Virus record (IMG/VR): IMGVR_UViG_3300033067_000104
Location: 1-30,270 of that record
Length of the DNA: 30,270 nt
Direction: 5' to 3' (one strand)
From: a virus
Lineage: Duplodnaviria; Caudoviricetes
Both the position numbers and the translations under genes were made by a program. The notes below the pieces were generated by a model. That model was not told the DNA's origin. It ran no database searches and was given only the letters and a program-made list of their open reading frames with translations. The stretch's first letter is position 1; each line of letters opens with the position of its first letter. Shown one piece after another: positions 1,953 to 14,280 of this stretch.

Positions 1953-3455
1953 TTATGCAACCCGCGACACATTACGGCGCAAGGGTTTAGACCATTGCTG
2001 CGCAGTGTTAGCCCCGAACATACCAATCGCGGCATCGGTAGCAAACGTCAGGACAAGTGAGTCAGCTTTATCAGGTGAGCGCAACCCGCGCTTACGAATG
2101 TCATCCTTGGATTCGATTTGAATCTTGCCGTTGGACGTGAAGAAGTAGCGCACAGTAGCCAACTCAGCCACAAGCTCCTCGTCTGACTGGATACGGCAAT
2201 CACGAGCCTCAAACCACGCCTTGGTCTTGTACCAAAGCTCGGCGCGTAGGTTCTTGTAAGTCTGTCCCATTGCGGGACTCTCGCTCACGTTAATCCCACG
2301 AACAGGCAAGCCCAACTCACGCAGACGGTCAACCACACCAGCACCAAGACCAATCGAGTCCACCAAGATTTCATGTGGGCGTTGGCTAGATGGCAGGGCT
2401 TCCCACTCAGCAACCACTGCACCCGTCAGTTGCATCAAATCCAAGTTCTTCCAAGTCTTGATTGGCTCCACCAGTGCGTTACCTTGGCGTTTGGCAAGTG
2501 CGGACCTATCGCCACCAAAGCGAGCAACGTCCAAGCCCCATATCAGCTTTGCGTGTTGGCTGGCCTCTACGTCTCGGTGCTTGGCAAGTTCCAGCAGCTC
2601 CATTGGAATTACGGTGTCGTCATCACTTCGTGGGAATTCACCAAGTACGCGAATCCGATATGCGTTGGATTCCTCACCGTAGCGAGCCTTCATCTCCTCA
2701 ACGTAGGCTTCTGAGACTCGTGGTGAGTCCACGCAGGACACCTTCATCGTCACCCAATCGCCTGACAGACGGTTATGGGTGTCGTAGAAGAAGCCTGAAC
2801 TTCGCACAGGGTTGCCCAAAAGCAATGTCACAGCGTTGTGGCCAGACATTGAGCCAGCAGCAGCCTCGAAAACCTGTTCGGGAATACCCGAAGCCTCATC
2901 GCCAATCAGCATCACGTTCTCGCTGTGGACACCTTGCAGGGCTTCTGGTTGCTCGGCGCGAGATGTTCTTGCGGACACGAAGGCTTCGGTCTGGGCTTCT
3001 TTGACCTCAATACGGTCTTGCTTGACTTCAAGCATATCTCTAAGAGTCGGTGGTAACTCCTTGACCCAACGCTTCAATTCCGCGAAAAGAGCGTCATACA
3101 ACTGGCTGGATGTGGGGGCTGTGACCACGACCTTGACGGGATACCGTAAAAGTAAATACCAGATGATTGCCCACGAAGCGCCAGTTGACTTACCAACACC
3201 GTGGCCACTACGCACTGAGATTCTTCGTTCACCCTTGGCGATGTGGTTGAGCATTGTCTCTTGCCAAGCATCAGGTGTGGTGTTCAACACTTCCTTTACA
3301 AACAACACAGGGTTGTTGCGGTAGCGAGCCGTGAAAGCCACGAAAGGGTTTGCTGCGATCTTCTCCTCTTGCTTCTTGATCGCGTTGTCCACCAGCTCTT
3401 GCGTGTCTGGGTGCAGCTTCTTCTTTGGTTCTTTTGGTGTTGATTCTTTAGTCAT
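1953..3455 (-). CDS. terL: Terminase large subunit
   Basis: 500 aa. Walker A SGHGVGKS, Walker B LIGDEASG, coupling motif GNP, and nuclease acidic motifs GLDVARFGGD and SPDKADS. Confidence 0.96.
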   Translation of the reverse strand: MTKESTPKEPKKKLHPDTQELVDNAIKKQEEKIAANPFVAFTARYRNNPVLFVKEVLNTTPDAWQETMLNHIAKGERRISVRSGHGVGKSTGASWAIIWYLLLRYPVKVVVTAPTSSQLYDALFAELKRWVKELPPTLRDMLEVKQDRIEVKEAQTEAFVSARTSRAEQPEALQGVHSENVMLIGDEASGIPEQVFEAAAGSMSGHNAVTLLLGNPVRSSGFFYDTHNRLSGDWVTMKVSCVDSPRVSEAYVEEMKARYGEESNAYRIRVLGEFPRSDDDTVIPMELLELAKHRDVEASQHAKLIWGLDVARFGGDRSALAKRQGNALVEPIKTWKNLDLMQLTGAVVAEWEALPSSQRPHEILVDSIGLGAGVVDRLRELGLPVRGINVSESPAMGQTYKNLRAELWYKTKAWFEARDCRIQSDEELVAELATVRYFFTSNGKIQIESKDDIRKRGLRSPDKADSLVLTFATDAAIGMFGANTAQQWSKPLRRNVSRVA

Positions 3456-3483
3456 GTGGGGATTGTGCCACTAAAGAAAGAAG

Positions 3484-3713
3484 GTGTTGGTGTCAGGTCG
3501 TGAACCCTGTATTCTTGATAGGCACATTCCTACCCATATCCGCCGCGAACCCGCAACGTCTTCTCCACCAACACGACTGAGGACTGTTTAGGGTAGCTAC
3601 TCCCATGCTCTCATCGGGTTTAAGGACTTGTAGCTGGCTGGCTTGCAAGACACCAAACTCTCAGAGGCCCAATGACCGATTTTATGAACCAGTCCTCATG
3701 CGTCTTGATGTTG
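3484..3713 (-). ncRNA. Candidate structured non-coding RNA with two large stem-closed domains
   Basis: Inverted repeats at 3566-3586/3690-3710 (17 of 21 match) and 3484-3492/3566-3574 (9 of 9). Extended -10 TGcTACACT at 3728-3720 on the minus strand. No credible ORF. Confidence 0.55.
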
Positions 3714-3929
3714 TAGTCAAGTGTAGCAGAGTTTTATTTTTTAAATTTTTTAGGGCATTACTTTAATAAGGGAGTGGTAGGGGGTGCGTTATTAAATTTT
3801 TTTTGGGTAGGTGTGGGCTTGCGTCTGTACAGCCACCCCCGCCACACGCCCCTACGGGGGGGGGGTCAGAGGCGGGACGGCTGGCACAGTCCTTGCCTAG
3901 ATGCAGAGTGAATACTAAAGAGTGTACGT

Positions 3930-3957
3930 ACTTTATACAATGTCCATTATGTAAAGT
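3930..3957 (+). other. dif-like XerC/XerD recombination site
   Basis: ACTTTATACAA-TGTCCA-TTATGTAAAGT has 11-6-11 geometry. The right arm resembles the XerD arm TTATGTTAAAT, and the arms are 9/11 inverted repeats. Confidence 0.7.
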
Positions 3958-3967
3958 TATTCCAGCG

Positions 3968-4065
3968 TTACCCACAGCATATACATGGATTGTGTAGCGT
4001 ATGCGCAACAAACCAAGACGACTGTGGATAACTTGAACAACTTAGCTGCTTTGGTCTGTGGATAT
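3968..4065. promoter_or_regulatory. Cluster of DnaA-box-like 9-mers
   Basis: TTACCCACA at 3968-3976 (1 mismatch), TGTGGATAA at 4023-4031 (perfect TTATCCACA on the minus strand) and TGTGGATAT at 4057-4065 (1 mismatch). Confidence 0.55.
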
Positions 4066-4476
4066 GTCAGCCTCGATCACTTCACCATGACGAAGTGCAT
4101 CAAGCCGCAAGTTAGCCAGATTGACCGTAACGCTTGGCATCTTGTTCTGTGCGTACGCAGCAGGATTCCAGCGTTCAGCAACCCACTGGCGCGTTTGCAC
4201 CCTTAAACGAGCCTTATTTACTTCACTTATATCGGTTTCGTCAGCAATTTCTATCGTTTCCGACACCAAATGGTCAGCCGCTCGTGCGCGCGCGTGCGTG
4301 AGGAAGGATTCCTGTTCGGGACGGTCAAGCCATTCGTGCAAGGCTCGCTTACTCACGCCAAGCTGCATACATATCCGAGCCTCGGACATCCCAGCCTCAA
4401 ACATCGTCCGAAGCTGATCTTTCGGCAACGTGTCCAACATTGCCATGTCGTGATGCTTCTTTTTGTTACCAGCCAT
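4042..4476 (-). CDS. terS: Terminase small subunit (Sf6 gp1-like)
   Basis: N-terminal HTH (GMSEARICMQLGVSKRALHEW), then ARARAAD...IEIAD and KARLRVQTRQW motifs. Upstream of terL, with a GGAG RBS. Confidence 0.85.
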   Translation of the reverse strand: MAGNKKKHHDMAMLDTLPKDQLRTMFEAGMSEARICMQLGVSKRALHEWLDRPEQESFLTHARARAADHLVSETIEIADETDISEVNKARLRVQTRQWVAERWNPAAYAQNKMPSVTVNLANLRLDALRHGEVIEADISTDQSS

Positions 4477-10901: not shown

Positions 10902-11002
10902 GCTGGCCTTTCCCAACACATCCACCAACACCGTGGACGCACAAGCAAATCAAAGAATACGCGCAACAACAACGCGCACAACTGCCAGAAAGTCCTATGT
11001 GA
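10898..11002 (+). CDS. Small protein, 34 aa (MSWPFPTHPPTPWTHKQIKEYAQQQRAQLPESPM)
   Basis: AAGGAG RBS, GTGA overlap upstream and TGATG overlap downstream. Confidence 0.65.
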   Translation: MSWPFPTHPPTPWTHKQIKEYAQQQRAQLPESPM

Positions 11003-11181
11003 TGAAAAAACCAACTCAAAAACATGACCACAGGCAAAGTCTTTGGCTAATTGCTGGTGGACATATTGCATGGTGTTATCAATGTGGCGCTTGGAAATTA
11101 AACCAAAAAGATGCGCCAAGATCATGGAACAAACCAACTGGTATTGGCGGCATCAATCCAGCAATGAAAGAAACAAAATGA
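11002..11181 (+). CDS. Hypothetical protein with CxxC (59 aa)
   Basis: MKKPTQKHDH...WCYQCGAW; translationally coupled at both ends. Confidence 0.6.
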   Translation: MKKPTQKHDHRQSLWLIAGGHIAWCYQCGAWKLNQKDAPRSWNKPTGIGGINPAMKETK

Positions 11182-11510
11182 CAACCCAAACAGAAGCATT
11201 GAAGCTGGCGTTTGAGGCGGCCGATGAATTGGAATGGTTTTTGGAAAGTGGCTATGAACATGGACGCGAAGGGCCACCAAGAGTTCATCGGTTAATCGCC
11301 AAGATTAGGGCTTTATCGGCACAGCCAGAGCAGAAGCCTGTGGTAGTGATGGAGCTTTACACAGTTGGTTGGGATTTGGTTGAAAACATTGATATTGATT
11401 GGCTTGAGAGTCTGCCATTCGGGACAAAGCTCTACGCACATCCACACGTCCAGAAACTTGGCATGACAGAAGAAAAGTTTAAAAATGACAACACAAACAG
11501 TAACTATTGA
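11178..11510 (+). CDS. Modular accessory protein, paralog 1
   Basis: Start reassigned to ATG at 11178. Segments EALKLA, AQPEQKPV and LYAHP are shared with the next gene. Confidence 0.7.
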   Translation: MTTQTEALKLAFEAADELEWFLESGYEHGREGPPRVHRLIAKIRALSAQPEQKPVVVMELYTVGWDLVENIDIDWLESLPFGTKLYAHPHVQKLGMTEEKFKNDNTNSNY

Positions 11511-12129
11511 ACGTAGCAAGCTGAAGCTGGCGCTTGATGCGTTTATTGAACTGCTTCAGCGGTCAGAGAACTTTCATACGGCAGATGTGCATTTCAAAGA
11601 TTTCGTTGTGGCTAAAGACGCTATGGAATCTTCTCGCGCCGCCATCACCGCCATCAAAGAAGCCTTAGCAGTTGACAAGGAATCCTTGACTACTGAGGCG
11701 CAGCAAAGTAATGAACAGGGGTGCGAACACTGCAACCACTCACTTTATTGCGGAACCAAATGTAAAAATTGTGGGAAGCAAAGCAATGAACAGGTAGAGC
11801 CTGTGGCGTGGGTTCAAGATGTTGAACTTGAGCAATCGCCTGAGTTTGCATTTAGTTGGGTAGAAACACGTTTGCATAATGTTCCTCTCTACACACATCC
11901 ACCCGTACCTACGGCACAACCAGAGCAGGATAAAGAACGTTGCGTTGGTTGCGATGCTTGTATTGATACTGCTTGCGGTCGTGATGAATGTCCAAAGGGT
12001 TGGCCTAAAGCACCACAGCGCACATGGGTTGGGCTGACGGAACAAGAAGCCGCTGAGTGCTGGTCAACATCTACCGTTCGTACATGGCAAGCCATCGAAG
12101 CAAAACTCAAGGAGAAGAACACAAAATGA
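11485..12129 (+). CDS. Modular accessory protein, paralog 2, with two Cys-rich inserts
   Basis: Segments LKLAL, AITAIKEALA, EPVAW, LYTHP, AQPEQ, RTWVGLT and AIEAKLKEKN. Confidence 0.75.
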   Translation: MTTQTVTIERSKLKLALDAFIELLQRSENFHTADVHFKDFVVAKDAMESSRAAITAIKEALAVDKESLTTEAQQSNEQGCEHCNHSLYCGTKCKNCGKQSNEQVEPVAWVQDVELEQSPEFAFSWVETRLHNVPLYTHPPVPTAQPEQDKERCVGCDACIDTACGRDECPKGWPKAPQRTWVGLTEQEAAECWSTSTVRTWQAIEAKLKEKNTK

Positions 12130-12314
12130 AAAACAGAATCCAAGCCCTGCTGATGGCGCGTGAACTGGAAGCCTACCAAGCTGTTGGTACATCAAAGATT
12201 GCTGCATTGCTGTGCGATCTGGTCAAGCAGTTGGAGATATACGAACAAGAAGTTGACTCGCTGAATGAGCGCGTGAAGCAACTTGAGCTTGATGTGATGG
12301 AGCAAAGCCAGTGA
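12126..12314 (+). CDS. Hypothetical coiled-coil protein (62 aa)
   Basis: AGGAG RBS and ATGA overlap; start reassigned to 12126. Confidence 0.7.
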   Translation: MKNRIQALLMARELEAYQAVGTSKIAALLCDLVKQLEIYEQEVDSLNERVKQLELDVMEQSQ

Positions 12315-12790
12315 GCAAACCTCGTAAGAAGTACAAACCCAAAGGTGTCCGTCTGGATGCAATCACATGGGTAATCAATGGCTTTAGAAACATCAGCGAA
12401 ACAGGTGATGCTGTTTTGCACTTGAAGATTAAGAACCATGAATCATTGGAGTGTCTGCGCAAGGGTGAAGCTGGACGCATTGACATTGACACAATCATCG
12501 GCGCGTTCAACATTGCAGAAGCACTTGCACGAATGAAGATTGGCGATGACTACGCCAAAGAGATCAAGGCTGGCCAAGATGCTTTGCTTGAAGTTGCCAA
12601 ACGCGGTGTGAGTCGTGATGACAAGTTCATCTTGAAGGCAGCAGAGCTTACTGCGATTGTTGAAGCAATGTTCGTGCATGATGCCCAACTAGAGATCACC
12701 ACCATTGGTGAGCTTGAGAAGGCGATGGACATCGTGGCAAAGGAAATCCGCGCACGCAGAGCGCGTTCAGTATTGGAGAAGACGCAATGA
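12311..12790 (+). CDS. Hypothetical protein (159 aa)
   Basis: Coupled in-operon ORF with a basic N-terminus and helical character. Confidence 0.8.
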   Translation: MSKPRKKYKPKGVRLDAITWVINGFRNISETGDAVLHLKIKNHESLECLRKGEAGRIDIDTIIGAFNIAEALARMKIGDDYAKEIKAGQDALLEVAKRGVSRDDKFILKAAELTAIVEAMFVHDAQLEITTIGELEKAMDIVAKEIRARRARSVLEKTQ

Positions 12791-13035
12791 ATCTGTTATT
12801 TGATTTTATGGTTGCATTGACAAGCAATCTCCCATTCTTAGAGGCGTGGAAGCGTGTTCGATGTTTGCGCAATAAGCATTTCAGCAATACGCAGCCAGAG
12901 TTTATTCAAAAGGCTCATTTTGAAAACCATCCACACTCTGATTCATCATGGGTTTACACCGTCAATTTAATGCAGTGTAAACATTGCACATTGCATTTTC
13001 TTGATGATGGCATTGAAATGAGAAAGACAAAATGA
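12787..13035 (+). CDS. Hypothetical protein (82 aa), possibly zinc-binding
   Basis: GGAG RBS, ATGA overlaps, and C..H / CKHC residues. Confidence 0.6.
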   Translation: MNLLFDFMVALTSNLPFLEAWKRVRCLRNKHFSNTQPEFIQKAHFENHPHSDSSWVYTVNLMQCKHCTLHFLDDGIEMRKTK

Positions 13036-13190
13036 ACAACTACGAAGAACCAGAAGACATTGAACAAGATGACGAAGACGAAATCTGTTCATGGTGCAGT
13101 GGCTCTGGTGAAGGTATGTATGACGGCTCAACCTGTGGCAAGTGCAAAGGCACTGGCGTAGAACCAAGGGAAAAAGAAGATGACTATTAA
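13032..13190 (+). CDS. Stand-alone DnaJ-type zinc-finger mini-protein (52 aa)
   Basis: Manual translation MNNYEEPEDIEQDDEDEICSWCSGSGEGMYDGSTCGKCKGTGVEPREKEDDY shows two CxxCxGxG motifs. Confidence 0.75.
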   Translation: MNNYEEPEDIEQDDEDEICSWCSGSGEGMYDGSTCGKCKGTGVEPREKEDDY

Positions 13191-13368
13191 AACAACACTT
13201 GCACCTGATGCCTCATGGCCATCAGAGCCACCAAAGACAAAGCGTGTGTATGCACCAAGGCAAAGACCAAAAACATACTCCAAGACTCAACCAATCAAGG
13301 AAGTTGACTATCTGCGCGAAGCGCGTGAGCAGTTAGCTGAGATGATGAACAAAAGGAAAGCAGCATGA
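13180..13368 (+). CDS. Hypothetical protein (62 aa)
   Basis: In-operon overlapping ORF. Confidence 0.6.
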   Translation: MTIKTTLAPDASWPSEPPKTKRVYAPRQRPKTYSKTQPIKEVDYLREAREQLAEMMNKRKAA

Positions 13369-13550
13369 AATACATTGACCTGATCGCATACCCAATCATG
13401 CTGGCAGTTGTCTATGTTCTAACTGGCTTCGCCAACTGGAACAGCAACCCAGAGTTTTGGACATACGCCGACCGTTGCTTCTGGCTCATCTCTGGACTTG
13501 TATGGGGCTTTGCCTTGCAATTACGAATCAACAAGAAACCAACACCATGA
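13365..13550 (+). CDS. Small membrane protein with two hydrophobic segments
   Basis: Segments LIAYPIMLAVVYVLTGF and FWLISGLVWGFAL; ATGA overlaps. Confidence 0.65.
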   Translation: MKYIDLIAYPIMLAVVYVLTGFANWNSNPEFWTYADRCFWLISGLVWGFALQLRINKKPTP

Positions 13551-13690
13551 ATGACTTTGCAATGGAAGACATCTCAAACATTGCCTTGCTTTGCTTCTTG
13601 CTTGGCATTGGCTTCATCACATTCATTGGCGTTGCAGCCATTTACATCACATCTCTTTTTTTAATGGAATCATTCAATGACGGTAATTGA
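13547..13690 (+). CDS. Small membrane protein (47 aa)
   Basis: Start reassigned to ATG at 13547; one long hydrophobic stretch. Confidence 0.6.
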   Translation: MNDFAMEDISNIALLCFLLGIGFITFIGVAAIYITSLFLMESFNDGN

Positions 13691-13692
13691 AG

Positions 13693-14280
13693 ATGAAACA
13701 TTACACATACATCCATAGATGCAAAGATGACATAAGCAGAGTCTTTTACGTTGGCAAAGGTTCTGGAGGTCGTATGAACTCTTTGTCGCATAGAAGCAAC
13801 CACTGGAAAAGCATTGCTAATAAGCATGGTGTCATTACAGAGAAAGTTGCTTCTTGGAAGACGCATCAAGAAGCCCTTGAGCATGAAAAGTTTTTAATCT
13901 TTTGCTTTAGAAGCATGGGATTTAAGCTATGCAATATGACTGATGGTGGAGAAGGTGTAACTGGATATGTGCCAACTGAAGAACACAGGAAAAGAACATC
14001 TGAAAGGATGAAAGGATATGTTCCAACTAAAGAAGCAAGAAAAAAGATTTCTCAATCTAAGATTGGAAATAAGGCAAGGTTGGGAACAAAAAACTCAGAA
14101 AAACACAAAGCTATTACAGCCTTAATCTGGAAAGGTAAAAAACTTTCAGAAGAACACAAAATGAAATTATCTTTGGCAAAACTTGGTAAAAAACTAAGTG
14201 ATGCAACAAAGAAGAAAATGTCAAATGCACAACACAACAGGAGAAAAAATGAAGACCGAAATTATCAATTGTTTCCATAA
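13693..14280 (+). CDS. Free-standing GIY-YIG-type homing endonuclease with NUMOD3 repeats
   Basis: YTYIH...FYVGKG, conserved R and E residues, NMTDGGEG, then repeated (T/S)EEHR/KxK(I/L)S motifs. Visibly more AT-rich than its flanks. Confidence 0.85.
   Translation: MKHYTYIHRCKDDISRVFYVGKGSGGRMNSLSHRSNHWKSIANKHGVITEKVASWKTHQEALEHEKFLIFCFRSMGFKLCNMTDGGEGVTGYVPTEEHRKRTSERMKGYVPTKEARKKISQSKIGNKARLGTKNSEKHKAITALIWKGKKLSEEHKMKLSLAKLGKKLSDATKKKMSNAQHNRRKNEDRNYQLFP

Follow-up and report, generated by a model that had tools for sequence, protein, structure and literature searches.

The minus-strand element lying between the two terminase genes of this lake-type phage belongs to a widespread, accessory family of phage cassettes and makes up a single unit of the form left arm, cargo A, middle arm, cargo B and right arm. 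The window analyzed here, 30,270 nucleotides long, is a phage record comprising ~86% of its genome, and it contains one copy of the cassette. It is a real accessory small-RNA cassette, with a large library of exchangeable cargos and probably with processing by RNase III. The whole explanation that we favor, in which the cassette is processed to release two small RNAs that function as decoys, has in our estimate a probability of roughly 45%.

All parts of the unit and both of its neighbors lie on the minus strand. Together with its -10 element the cassette forms an accessory insert at 3470..3735, missing from the empty allele, with terS, the terminase small subunit gene, upstream (4042..4476; phrog_1482, E = 2.7e-16) and terL, the large subunit gene, downstream (1953..3455; phrog_2, E = 5.5e-45). 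An extended -10 promoter-like element recognized in the sequence (3720..3728), with a start site predicted near 3713-3712, precedes the left arm (3690..3710). Cargo A (3587..3689; family 7), a conserved and exchangeable multi-helix RNA recognized by covariation, fills the 103-nt gap between this arm and the middle arm (3566..3586), and cargo B (3493..3565; family 24), with three hairpins and a cloverleaf-like junction, fills the 73-nt gap between the middle arm and the right arm (3484..3492), which closes it. Behind the right arm stands a pyrimidine/U-rich tail (3472..3483) that may be the 3' end of the B RNA. The preliminary description had named the extended -10 and the three arms, and sequence and inverted repeats place every one of them at these minus-strand positions. 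A repeat search of the window returned I1 (3566-3589/3687-3710) and I13 (3484-3492/3566-3574, 9/9 complementary), the latter agreeing with the pairing profile in defining the right arm. As that description had also recognized, the middle arm can pair either with the left arm, giving a stem of 19-21 bp with a 2x2 loop, or perfectly with the right arm, and at -74.7 and -74.3 kcal/mol the two alternatives are equal in energy.

When the 245-nt region was shuffled 300 times at the mononucleotide level, the three-arm architecture did not arise once. As a whole this region folds no better than its dinucleotide shuffles (z = -0.24; 83 of 200 equally stable), so the evidence for the element rests on comparative data. 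The cassette -10 element was missed by a strict sigma-70 scan; across the family, a -10-like hexamer 16 nt upstream of the arm core is the top spacing peak, present in 24 of 411 arm-first contexts. The tail was not called as a terminator, and U-rich tails are not general, with at least five T in an 8-nt window for 44 of 206 terminal units. Rfam gave no match in the window at the gathering threshold, its single chance match (E = 5.7) lying outside the element, and ARAGORN called no tRNA in the window; the preliminary description had assigned the RNA to no family.

The middle-arm pattern occurs in an estimated ~1,100 IMG/VR stretches. A left arm lies within 250 nt in 113 of the 120 viral middle-arm matches listed; the same loose test was passed by 6 of the 120 bacterial-genome matches listed, two of which are real on inspection. 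Both real occurrences are short contigs in Burkholderiales MAGs, and it is from these two contigs only that the likely host family is taken. In 301 genomes of that family the middle motif was found in four, with true arms only in the seed genome. Nearly all motif matches in bacterial genomes are chance, and the cassette family is phage-specific. A search of isolated phages gave a single partial match, which lies without annotation in the record of an uncultured phage from spring water. At 80 loci fetched through terL, the site is empty, holds a gene, or holds one or two units.

We parsed 497 units, 373 of them distinct, and removal of seven (six antisense readings and L455) left 366 units from 252 loci. 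In this cleaned set the distinct A cargos number 338 and fall into 170 families; the distinct B cargos, taken from the 306 units with a right arm, number 289 and fall into 152. The total is ~314 cargo families, eight of which occur in both slots. Family counts vary with the BLAST thresholds, and 208 of 338 families are singletons in the uncleaned set, which also underlies the counts given here for stem pairing, folding energies, right arms, RNase III scores and partners. The interiors are 24-190 nt long. Loci L395, L415, L419, L424, L434, L436, L462, L363 and L406 carry divergent arms with a single mismatch after the predicted RNase III cut, and these arms are nearer to the 16S stem of the host family than the standard arms are. 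The exact-pattern estimate understates the size of the family.

The inner left:middle stem is 96-100% paired across 373 units. One stem pair that varies freely is G-C in 225 cases, A-U in 118, G-U in 23 and A-C in 2, and among distinct arm pairs G-U outnumbers A-C by 504 to 16, an excess that comes in part from one consensus wobble. A pattern-light scan recovered 380 stems against 1 in shuffled loci, about a dozen of them antisense readings, and arm-core variants were compensatory in 13 and 4 of the 380 stems. Covariation among homologues had been put forward as a check on this element; arms and cargos do covary and the wobbles favor the transcribed strand, which shows that selection acts on the RNA of the minus strand.

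Integron attC sites are characterized by an invariant AAC/GTT core, extrahelical bases and folding of the bottom strand. GTT/AAC triplets flank cargo B, the left-variable-middle layout is attC-like and the alleles described below break at the arms, all of which would suit a mobile or recombination element acting at the DNA level, be it an attC-like site or a MITE/REP-like repeat with captured interiors. Correia elements and attC arrays likewise combine constant inverted arms with variable interiors, and Correia elements are inverted-repeat elements that RNase III binds and cuts (PMC2649163). However, the triplet opposite GTT is AAC in 197 units, AAG in 86 and TAC in 52, the inner stem has no extrahelical base, the strand-asymmetric wobbles favor transcribed RNA, and the interiors are conserved as RNA folds. 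Neither an integrase nor a transposase was found among the 41 window proteins scanned or 18 neighbor-cluster representatives, and the cassette is not dispersed, with one copy per genome here and no target-site duplication when empty and filled alleles are compared. A DNA-level origin of the pattern is in our view highly improbable. As specific candidates, an integron attC array was rejected on its non-invariant core, wobbles favoring the top strand and the lack of a linked tyrosine recombinase among these proteins, and a MITE or Correia element on the single window copy and a middle motif found in 4/301 host-family genomes, with real arms in 1.

The left:middle stem scores as a predicted RNase III site, which supports the suggestion in the preliminary description of a processed non-coding RNA cut by this enzyme. 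For scoring we used an in vivo E. coli pair-count matrix of 85 duplexes (PMC6212723 Table S4), re-implemented without gap columns, with a threshold of -25.5 that corresponds to 5% false positives in the same source. The window scores -22.2, above the threshold, as do 73% of arm pairs; the matrix is that of E. coli, and the phage host is inferred. Of 206 distinct arm pairs, 202 score highest in one and the same cut register, a count that comes close to one observation because the arms share ancestry, and a threaded null for the register gave p = 0.0023. This register predicts cuts at 3701|3700 in the left arm (C1), the 5' strand of the stem, and at 3574|3573 in the middle arm (C2), its 3' strand. 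The expected pair preferences are present, namely G-C/C-G between the cuts and A-U/U-A at D and D', and as a control the E. coli 16S stem returned its known cut site under the same matrix. Substrates of RNase III are helices of about two turns (PMC1540722), and the left:middle stem conforms to this rule.

The register preferred by the matrix is that of the RNase III cuts in E. coli 16S pre-rRNA at -115/+33 (PMC8708148). In the rRNA operons of eight genomes of the likely host family the 16S stem has one mismatch, and in 8/8 genomes the left arm is identical to the 5' strand of this stem at 12 of 18 positions, with the mismatch in register. The likeness was seen post hoc, ranks 4-9 among about 11,000-14,000 positions and has a random-stem p of 2.7e-4; that of the 3' arm is weaker, with ranks of only 12-72. 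Two adjacent mismatches stand directly after C1, a feature rare in the E. coli duplex set, and with such mismatches the enzyme may cut just one of the two strands (PMC1540722), or may bind the stem and leave it intact. Real RNase III sites often fit the consensus poorly, according to PMC5371410.

The pairing of the right arm stops at the same place. It includes the first base after the C2 cut in 284 of 313 units, the base before the cut in 65 of 312 and the next base in 12 of 312. Because the right arm pairs only up to the predicted cut, the two folds are probably sequential, a cut followed by re-clamping. For 79% of 312 units, model folding assigns the lower energy to the form in which left and middle arms are paired, so that refolding would need the cut. 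Among 27 candidates for a B unit at the head of an array, nine are preceded by a -10-like hexamer at a distance of exactly 6 nt, and many of the remaining 18 are divergent middle arms.

We propose that transcription starts near 3713 from the cassette's own promoter and that the left and middle arms pair first, forming a stem that would resemble the 16S pre-rRNA processing stem. Host RNase III would then cut at C1 and C2 and thereby release RNA A, 127 nt long and held shut by a stem of 9 bp. In the remaining piece downstream the middle arm (3566..3586) would take on its second role, as the 5' strand of a clamp around cargo B: the newly exposed 5' end is predicted to re-pair with the right arm, giving an RNA B of ~90 nt with a buried 5' end. 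The first fold is probably best read as the substrate of the enzyme and the second as the protective clamp of the product, and the pairings originally called mutually exclusive would be the states before and after cutting. The earlier reading as a single two-domain RNA is probably wrong, as the predicted cut separates the two domains. RNase III double cuts leave 2-nt 3' overhangs and depend on rnc. The public runs compared with the window, X1, X5, X14 and X16 among them, consisted of contigs and showed no transcript or RNA end; the one true metatranscriptome had no coverage at the element, and the want of coverage in X14 weighs neither way. Taken jointly, we regard transcription start, arm pairing, RNase III cutting and re-clamping as having good odds of being correct.

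Substrates of RNase P consist of an acceptor-like stem with a single-stranded 5' leader and a stacked T-like arm. The element might mature in the manner of a tRNA, through RNase P cutting and 3' trimming at acceptor-like stems in both slots, with no RNase III step. Both slots indeed show a U, then a G, a 7-bp stem and a discriminator A; at L452 an Rfam tRNA uses the slot-B arms as its acceptor stem, and at L189 ARAGORN calls a tRNA in slot A. In 49 of 159 B families, compared with 10 in shuffles, a hairpin of 5 bp lies immediately beside the 3' strand, and the combination of acceptor-like stem and stacked T-like arm is present in the second fold and in these families but not in slot A, where there is no hairpin excess (13 of 176 against 11); moreover, 32 B families pass at the 5' side too. 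This maturation pathway leaves unexplained why leader and trailer pair almost invariantly beyond the acceptor-like stem and vary there in a compensatory manner, and no CCA is encoded after the discriminator. That it replaces RNase III altogether is very unlikely, although RNase P could still remove one base after the RNase III cut.

The cargos are folded RNAs in their own right. An alignment of 13 sequences for the window's cargo A, arms included (five from scans, seven of the eight true metagenome matches and the window), has 99.6% of its cells paired. Eight of its 36 pairs are compensatory, five of them within the cargo, and the covariation exceeds all 500 shuffles and all slid controls in a kind of test that relatedness inflates. 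For cargo B, six aligned sequences have 2 of 26 pairs compensatory. GNRA tetraloops occur 16 times in the sense and once in the antisense direction in A cargos, and 15 times against once in B cargos. Folding energies are modest, with median z of -1.03 and -0.66. Recurring scaffolds among 296 slot-B cargos comprise a kissing-loop type (25, one an antisense artefact), a loop-E-like type (21), a second loop-loop type (27) and a tRNA-like type (10). Loop-loop pairs covary in two scaffold classes, and the scaffolds carry further variable inserts, those at the center of the tRNA-shaped ones being hypervariable. Cargo family 4 (L336, L121) has a conserved purine-rich motif that may resemble the P4 strand of bacterial RNase P RNA.

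Transfer RNAs accompany the cassettes. All 34 tRNA calls at cassette loci are co-directional; they fall in 26 of 256 loci, and in 6 of 7 upstream cases the tRNA CCA runs straight into the left arm. In 40 loci picked from the 256 for cargo diversity, Rfam matched only tRNA, with 10 matches. The proposed tRNA mimicry applies to some slot-B cargos of relatives, a minority, and was not established for the window's cargo B. We rejected a tRNA identity for the latter, as neither Rfam nor ARAGORN matched it and its loops are 4, 6 and 8 nt, whereas a tRNA cloverleaf has a D arm, a 7-nt anticodon loop and a T loop. Cargo family 66 (L452:548-618 and relatives) consists of tRNA-like slot-B cargos with 6-nt anticodon loops, the central triplet of which occurs in three forms; these are candidate non-translating tRNA decoys.

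The idea of a scaffold with variable loops is supported, in that the two domains are independent exchangeable cargos swapped among relatives and in natural alleles. Across its 9 units the family of the window's cargo A is combined with 8 partner families, and that of its cargo B with 5 in 5 units; over 37 A families, 143 distinct partners were counted in 155 units, so that A and B cargo families combine almost freely. Loci L032 and L535 contain the window's cargo B alone, without left arm or cargo A, and in L524 the middle arm is followed by a tRNA-like sequence that has an acceptor stem of its own. The site is empty in L001, L007, L010 and L013; in L001, the closest relative with a terL that is 100% identical, the empty site is followed by a DNA methylase gene. 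Contigs of runs X20, X21 and X22 skip 266-267 nt, from 3469 to 3736/3737, which is the whole insert. B-only alleles in runs X20 and X21 have contig matches that begin or end exactly at 3573, and in run X22 the same arms enclose 70 different bases in place of cargo A. Natural samples therefore contain alleles that are full, B-only, empty or cargo-swapped, and near-identical phages carry unrelated cargos. Swapping would proceed by recombination at the constant arms. The methylase gene (L001:1886-3004) is inserted at the terL start, where it reuses the first codons and the promoter of terL, and this allele co-occurs with cassette alleles in runs X20 and X21.

A separate extended -10 element belongs to terL (3462..3470, minus strand), 6 nt before its ATG. 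Such an element stands six bases before the terL ATG in 47 of 48 relatives, with the cassette present or absent, and from this sequence context terL appears to have a leaderless start and its own promoter. A script counted the cassette as missing at the site in 32 of the 48 relatives (about 29, three being de-duplicated cassette loci), and the complete relative G307 has no left-arm match. Since terL has its own -10 beside the ATG and the cassette is optional, the original suggestion of a switch timing terL finds no support, and the terL riboswitch or cis-switch was rejected as a candidate on the same grounds. A terminase gene is present in the fetched 2.3-3 kb flank of 28 of 101 pattern-fetched loci and in none of the other 73. 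A cis-acting switch or a pRNA-like packaging RNA tied to the terminase would suit the position between terS and terL, the isoenergetic folds and the terminases of several Pfam families that adjoin cassettes, but it is hard to reconcile with absence from about 29-32 of 48 relatives, with cargo replacement between near-identical phages and with loci that have no terminase nearby, and we consider it scarcely tenable.

The arms might alternatively be mRNA punctuation, T7-like RNase III sites that cut and stabilize the late transcript, in which case the cargos would be mostly neutral filler. In E. coli, nohB is a prophage terminase gene. RNase III makes a double cut in the nohB 5' UTR (PMC6212723 Table S5), and those cassettes that lie beside terminase genes are likewise in accord with punctuation. 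Neutral filler, however, would not be expected to keep covarying secondary and tertiary structure across unrelated loci as the cargos do; in addition, the units start from promoters of their own, occur in tandem and are interspersed with tRNAs, and the terL start is separate. Punctuation as the sole role of the arms is thus quite unlikely.

A search for a dedicated partner protein found none: ORF clusters at 256 loci were mainly terminase and ordinary neighbors, the largest present in 38 loci. One protein family without a Pfam match occurs at 16 loci (among them L072:4841-5332, L002, L004, L008 and L032), and its genes often immediately follow a cassette in the downstream direction or precede a cargo B that stands alone. 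In the terS-cassette interval of the window (3930-4065, minus strand) there is a perfect DnaA-box-like 9-mer at 4031, and positions 3968 and 4065 have near-matches to it; an inverted repeat at 3930-3957 is conserved, its hairpin motif being found in 68 of 69 relatives. Over the 69 relatives, perfect boxes number 118 in 110 kb upstream of terL and 0 in 269 kb downstream. The interval may contain an element that is origin-like or binds DnaA, next to the packaging genes. A GC-rich hairpin followed by C- and A-runs (3833-3876), retained in most terL relatives down to 77% identity, is a candidate terminator or packaging site.

The cargos keep their folds and are rapidly exchanged, a methylase uses the same accessory site, and tRNAs lie close by; this makes shape-based decoys the most likely function of the cargos. 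The released RNAs would act through their shape as decoys or ligands for host proteins, for example anti-phage defense factors. Phage tRNAs counter host defense systems (PMC11555353), and RNA anti-CRISPRs are known from phages (PMC10651486). Given the processing steps, we would put a decoy or anti-defense function at about even odds.

The same RNase III processing could instead yield base-pairing regulators of host or phage mRNAs, either Hfq-type sRNAs or C4-like antisense RNAs. The lambda sRNAs LPR1/PreS and LPR2 have host targets (10.1101/2024.10.31.621285), C4 is a processed three-hairpin antisense RNA (PMC5320573), and the central inserts of the tRNA-shaped scaffolds are hypervariable. Against this, cargo matches to the own genome, flanks and rRNA operons, the targets compared, show no excess, in a test that is blind to short seeds. 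The best antisense matches of the two window cargos to their own genome are 12 nt (24.5% of nulls) and 11 nt (46%), no better than shuffles; a comparison of the loops with phage sequence had been proposed earlier. Matches of 337 cargos to their own flanks average 8.63 nt compared with 8.51 nt for foreign flanks, and complementarity to rRNA operons, whether as mimicry or antisense, is not in excess except for one tRNA-derived 21-mer. Rfam gave no C4 match in the 40 loci; for the window a C4 antisense RNA was rejected on the lack of an Rfam C4 match and of an own-genome target excess, very short or split targets being invisible to this comparison. Base-pairing regulation is accordingly an unlikely main function. 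Other functions also found no support in the sets searched: sense ORFs of at least 26 aa occur in 79 of 306 units compared with 88 when shuffled, GGA is not enriched in the cargos as it would be in a CsrA sponge, and hammerhead or other self-cleaving ribozymes were rejected because a check by eye for their cores gave no match and Rfam gave none.

Several known systems resemble the decoy-releasing cassette that we favor. In the RNase III stems of rRNA, complementary arms of about two helical turns enclose an RNA and tRNAs adjoin (PMC8708148). The best register is the same and identity to the cassette arms is 10-12/18. In contrast to rRNA stems, the cassette resides in phages, is accessory and polymorphic, has interiors of hundreds of families, and its 3' arm would serve a second time, as the 5' strand of the clamp on another RNA. 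The RNase III sites of T7 act in early mRNA. Those of the R1.1 type share with the cassette a phage stem with an internal loop for cutting of a polycistronic transcript by host RNase III (PMC1540722), but they are short hairpins between protein genes, whereas the cassette's 'loop' is a conserved structured RNA and its product of interest appears to be non-coding. C4 of P1/P7 is similarly a multi-hairpin phage RNA with variable loops released by a host nuclease; unlike the cassette, which gives no target signal, it is cut by RNase P and is one family with known antisense targets (PMC5320573). Anti-defense phage tRNAs (PMC11555353) and RNA anti-CRISPRs (PMC10651486) are small phage RNAs in variable regions, and tRNAs and their look-alikes occur in and beside cassettes; those are single RNA types with tested targets, whereas the cassette is a common chassis for many folds.

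We did not find the cassette family in Rfam or in the literature searched. Lambda LPR2 is a late-operon sRNA, and the text of the preprint makes no mention of RNase III (10.1101/2024.10.31.621285). The catalogue in PMC10690425 includes 14 candidates upstream of a terminase; neither the arm motifs nor five contig ids were found in its readable supplement files, alignment archives aside. Single cargos or arms may already stand as anonymous candidates in the supplements of PMC10690425 or PMC5737381.

The cutting chemistry would be familiar; what would be new, if our reading is true, is one constant frame able to make a stable small RNA of whatever it encloses. The ~314 cargo families come from no more than 252 of the loci, whose number is estimated at 1,100 or above, and the predicted cuts give exact RNA boundaries for hundreds of phage folds that, a few tRNA-like ones excepted, have no Rfam match. 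With such predicted boundaries, cargos could be cloned together with their own arms to ask directly what phage non-coding RNAs do against host defenses. Cut-then-re-clamp processing and tRNA-shaped scaffolds could also help to express several RNAs from one transcript. It is a tentative picture, which we hold at somewhat less than even odds, that freshwater phages share a host-processed RNA cassette that mimics a pre-rRNA cut site and exchange through it several hundred aptamer-like anti-defense decoys. If the decoy reading is true, the cassette would be an RNA counterpart of anti-defense gene islands.
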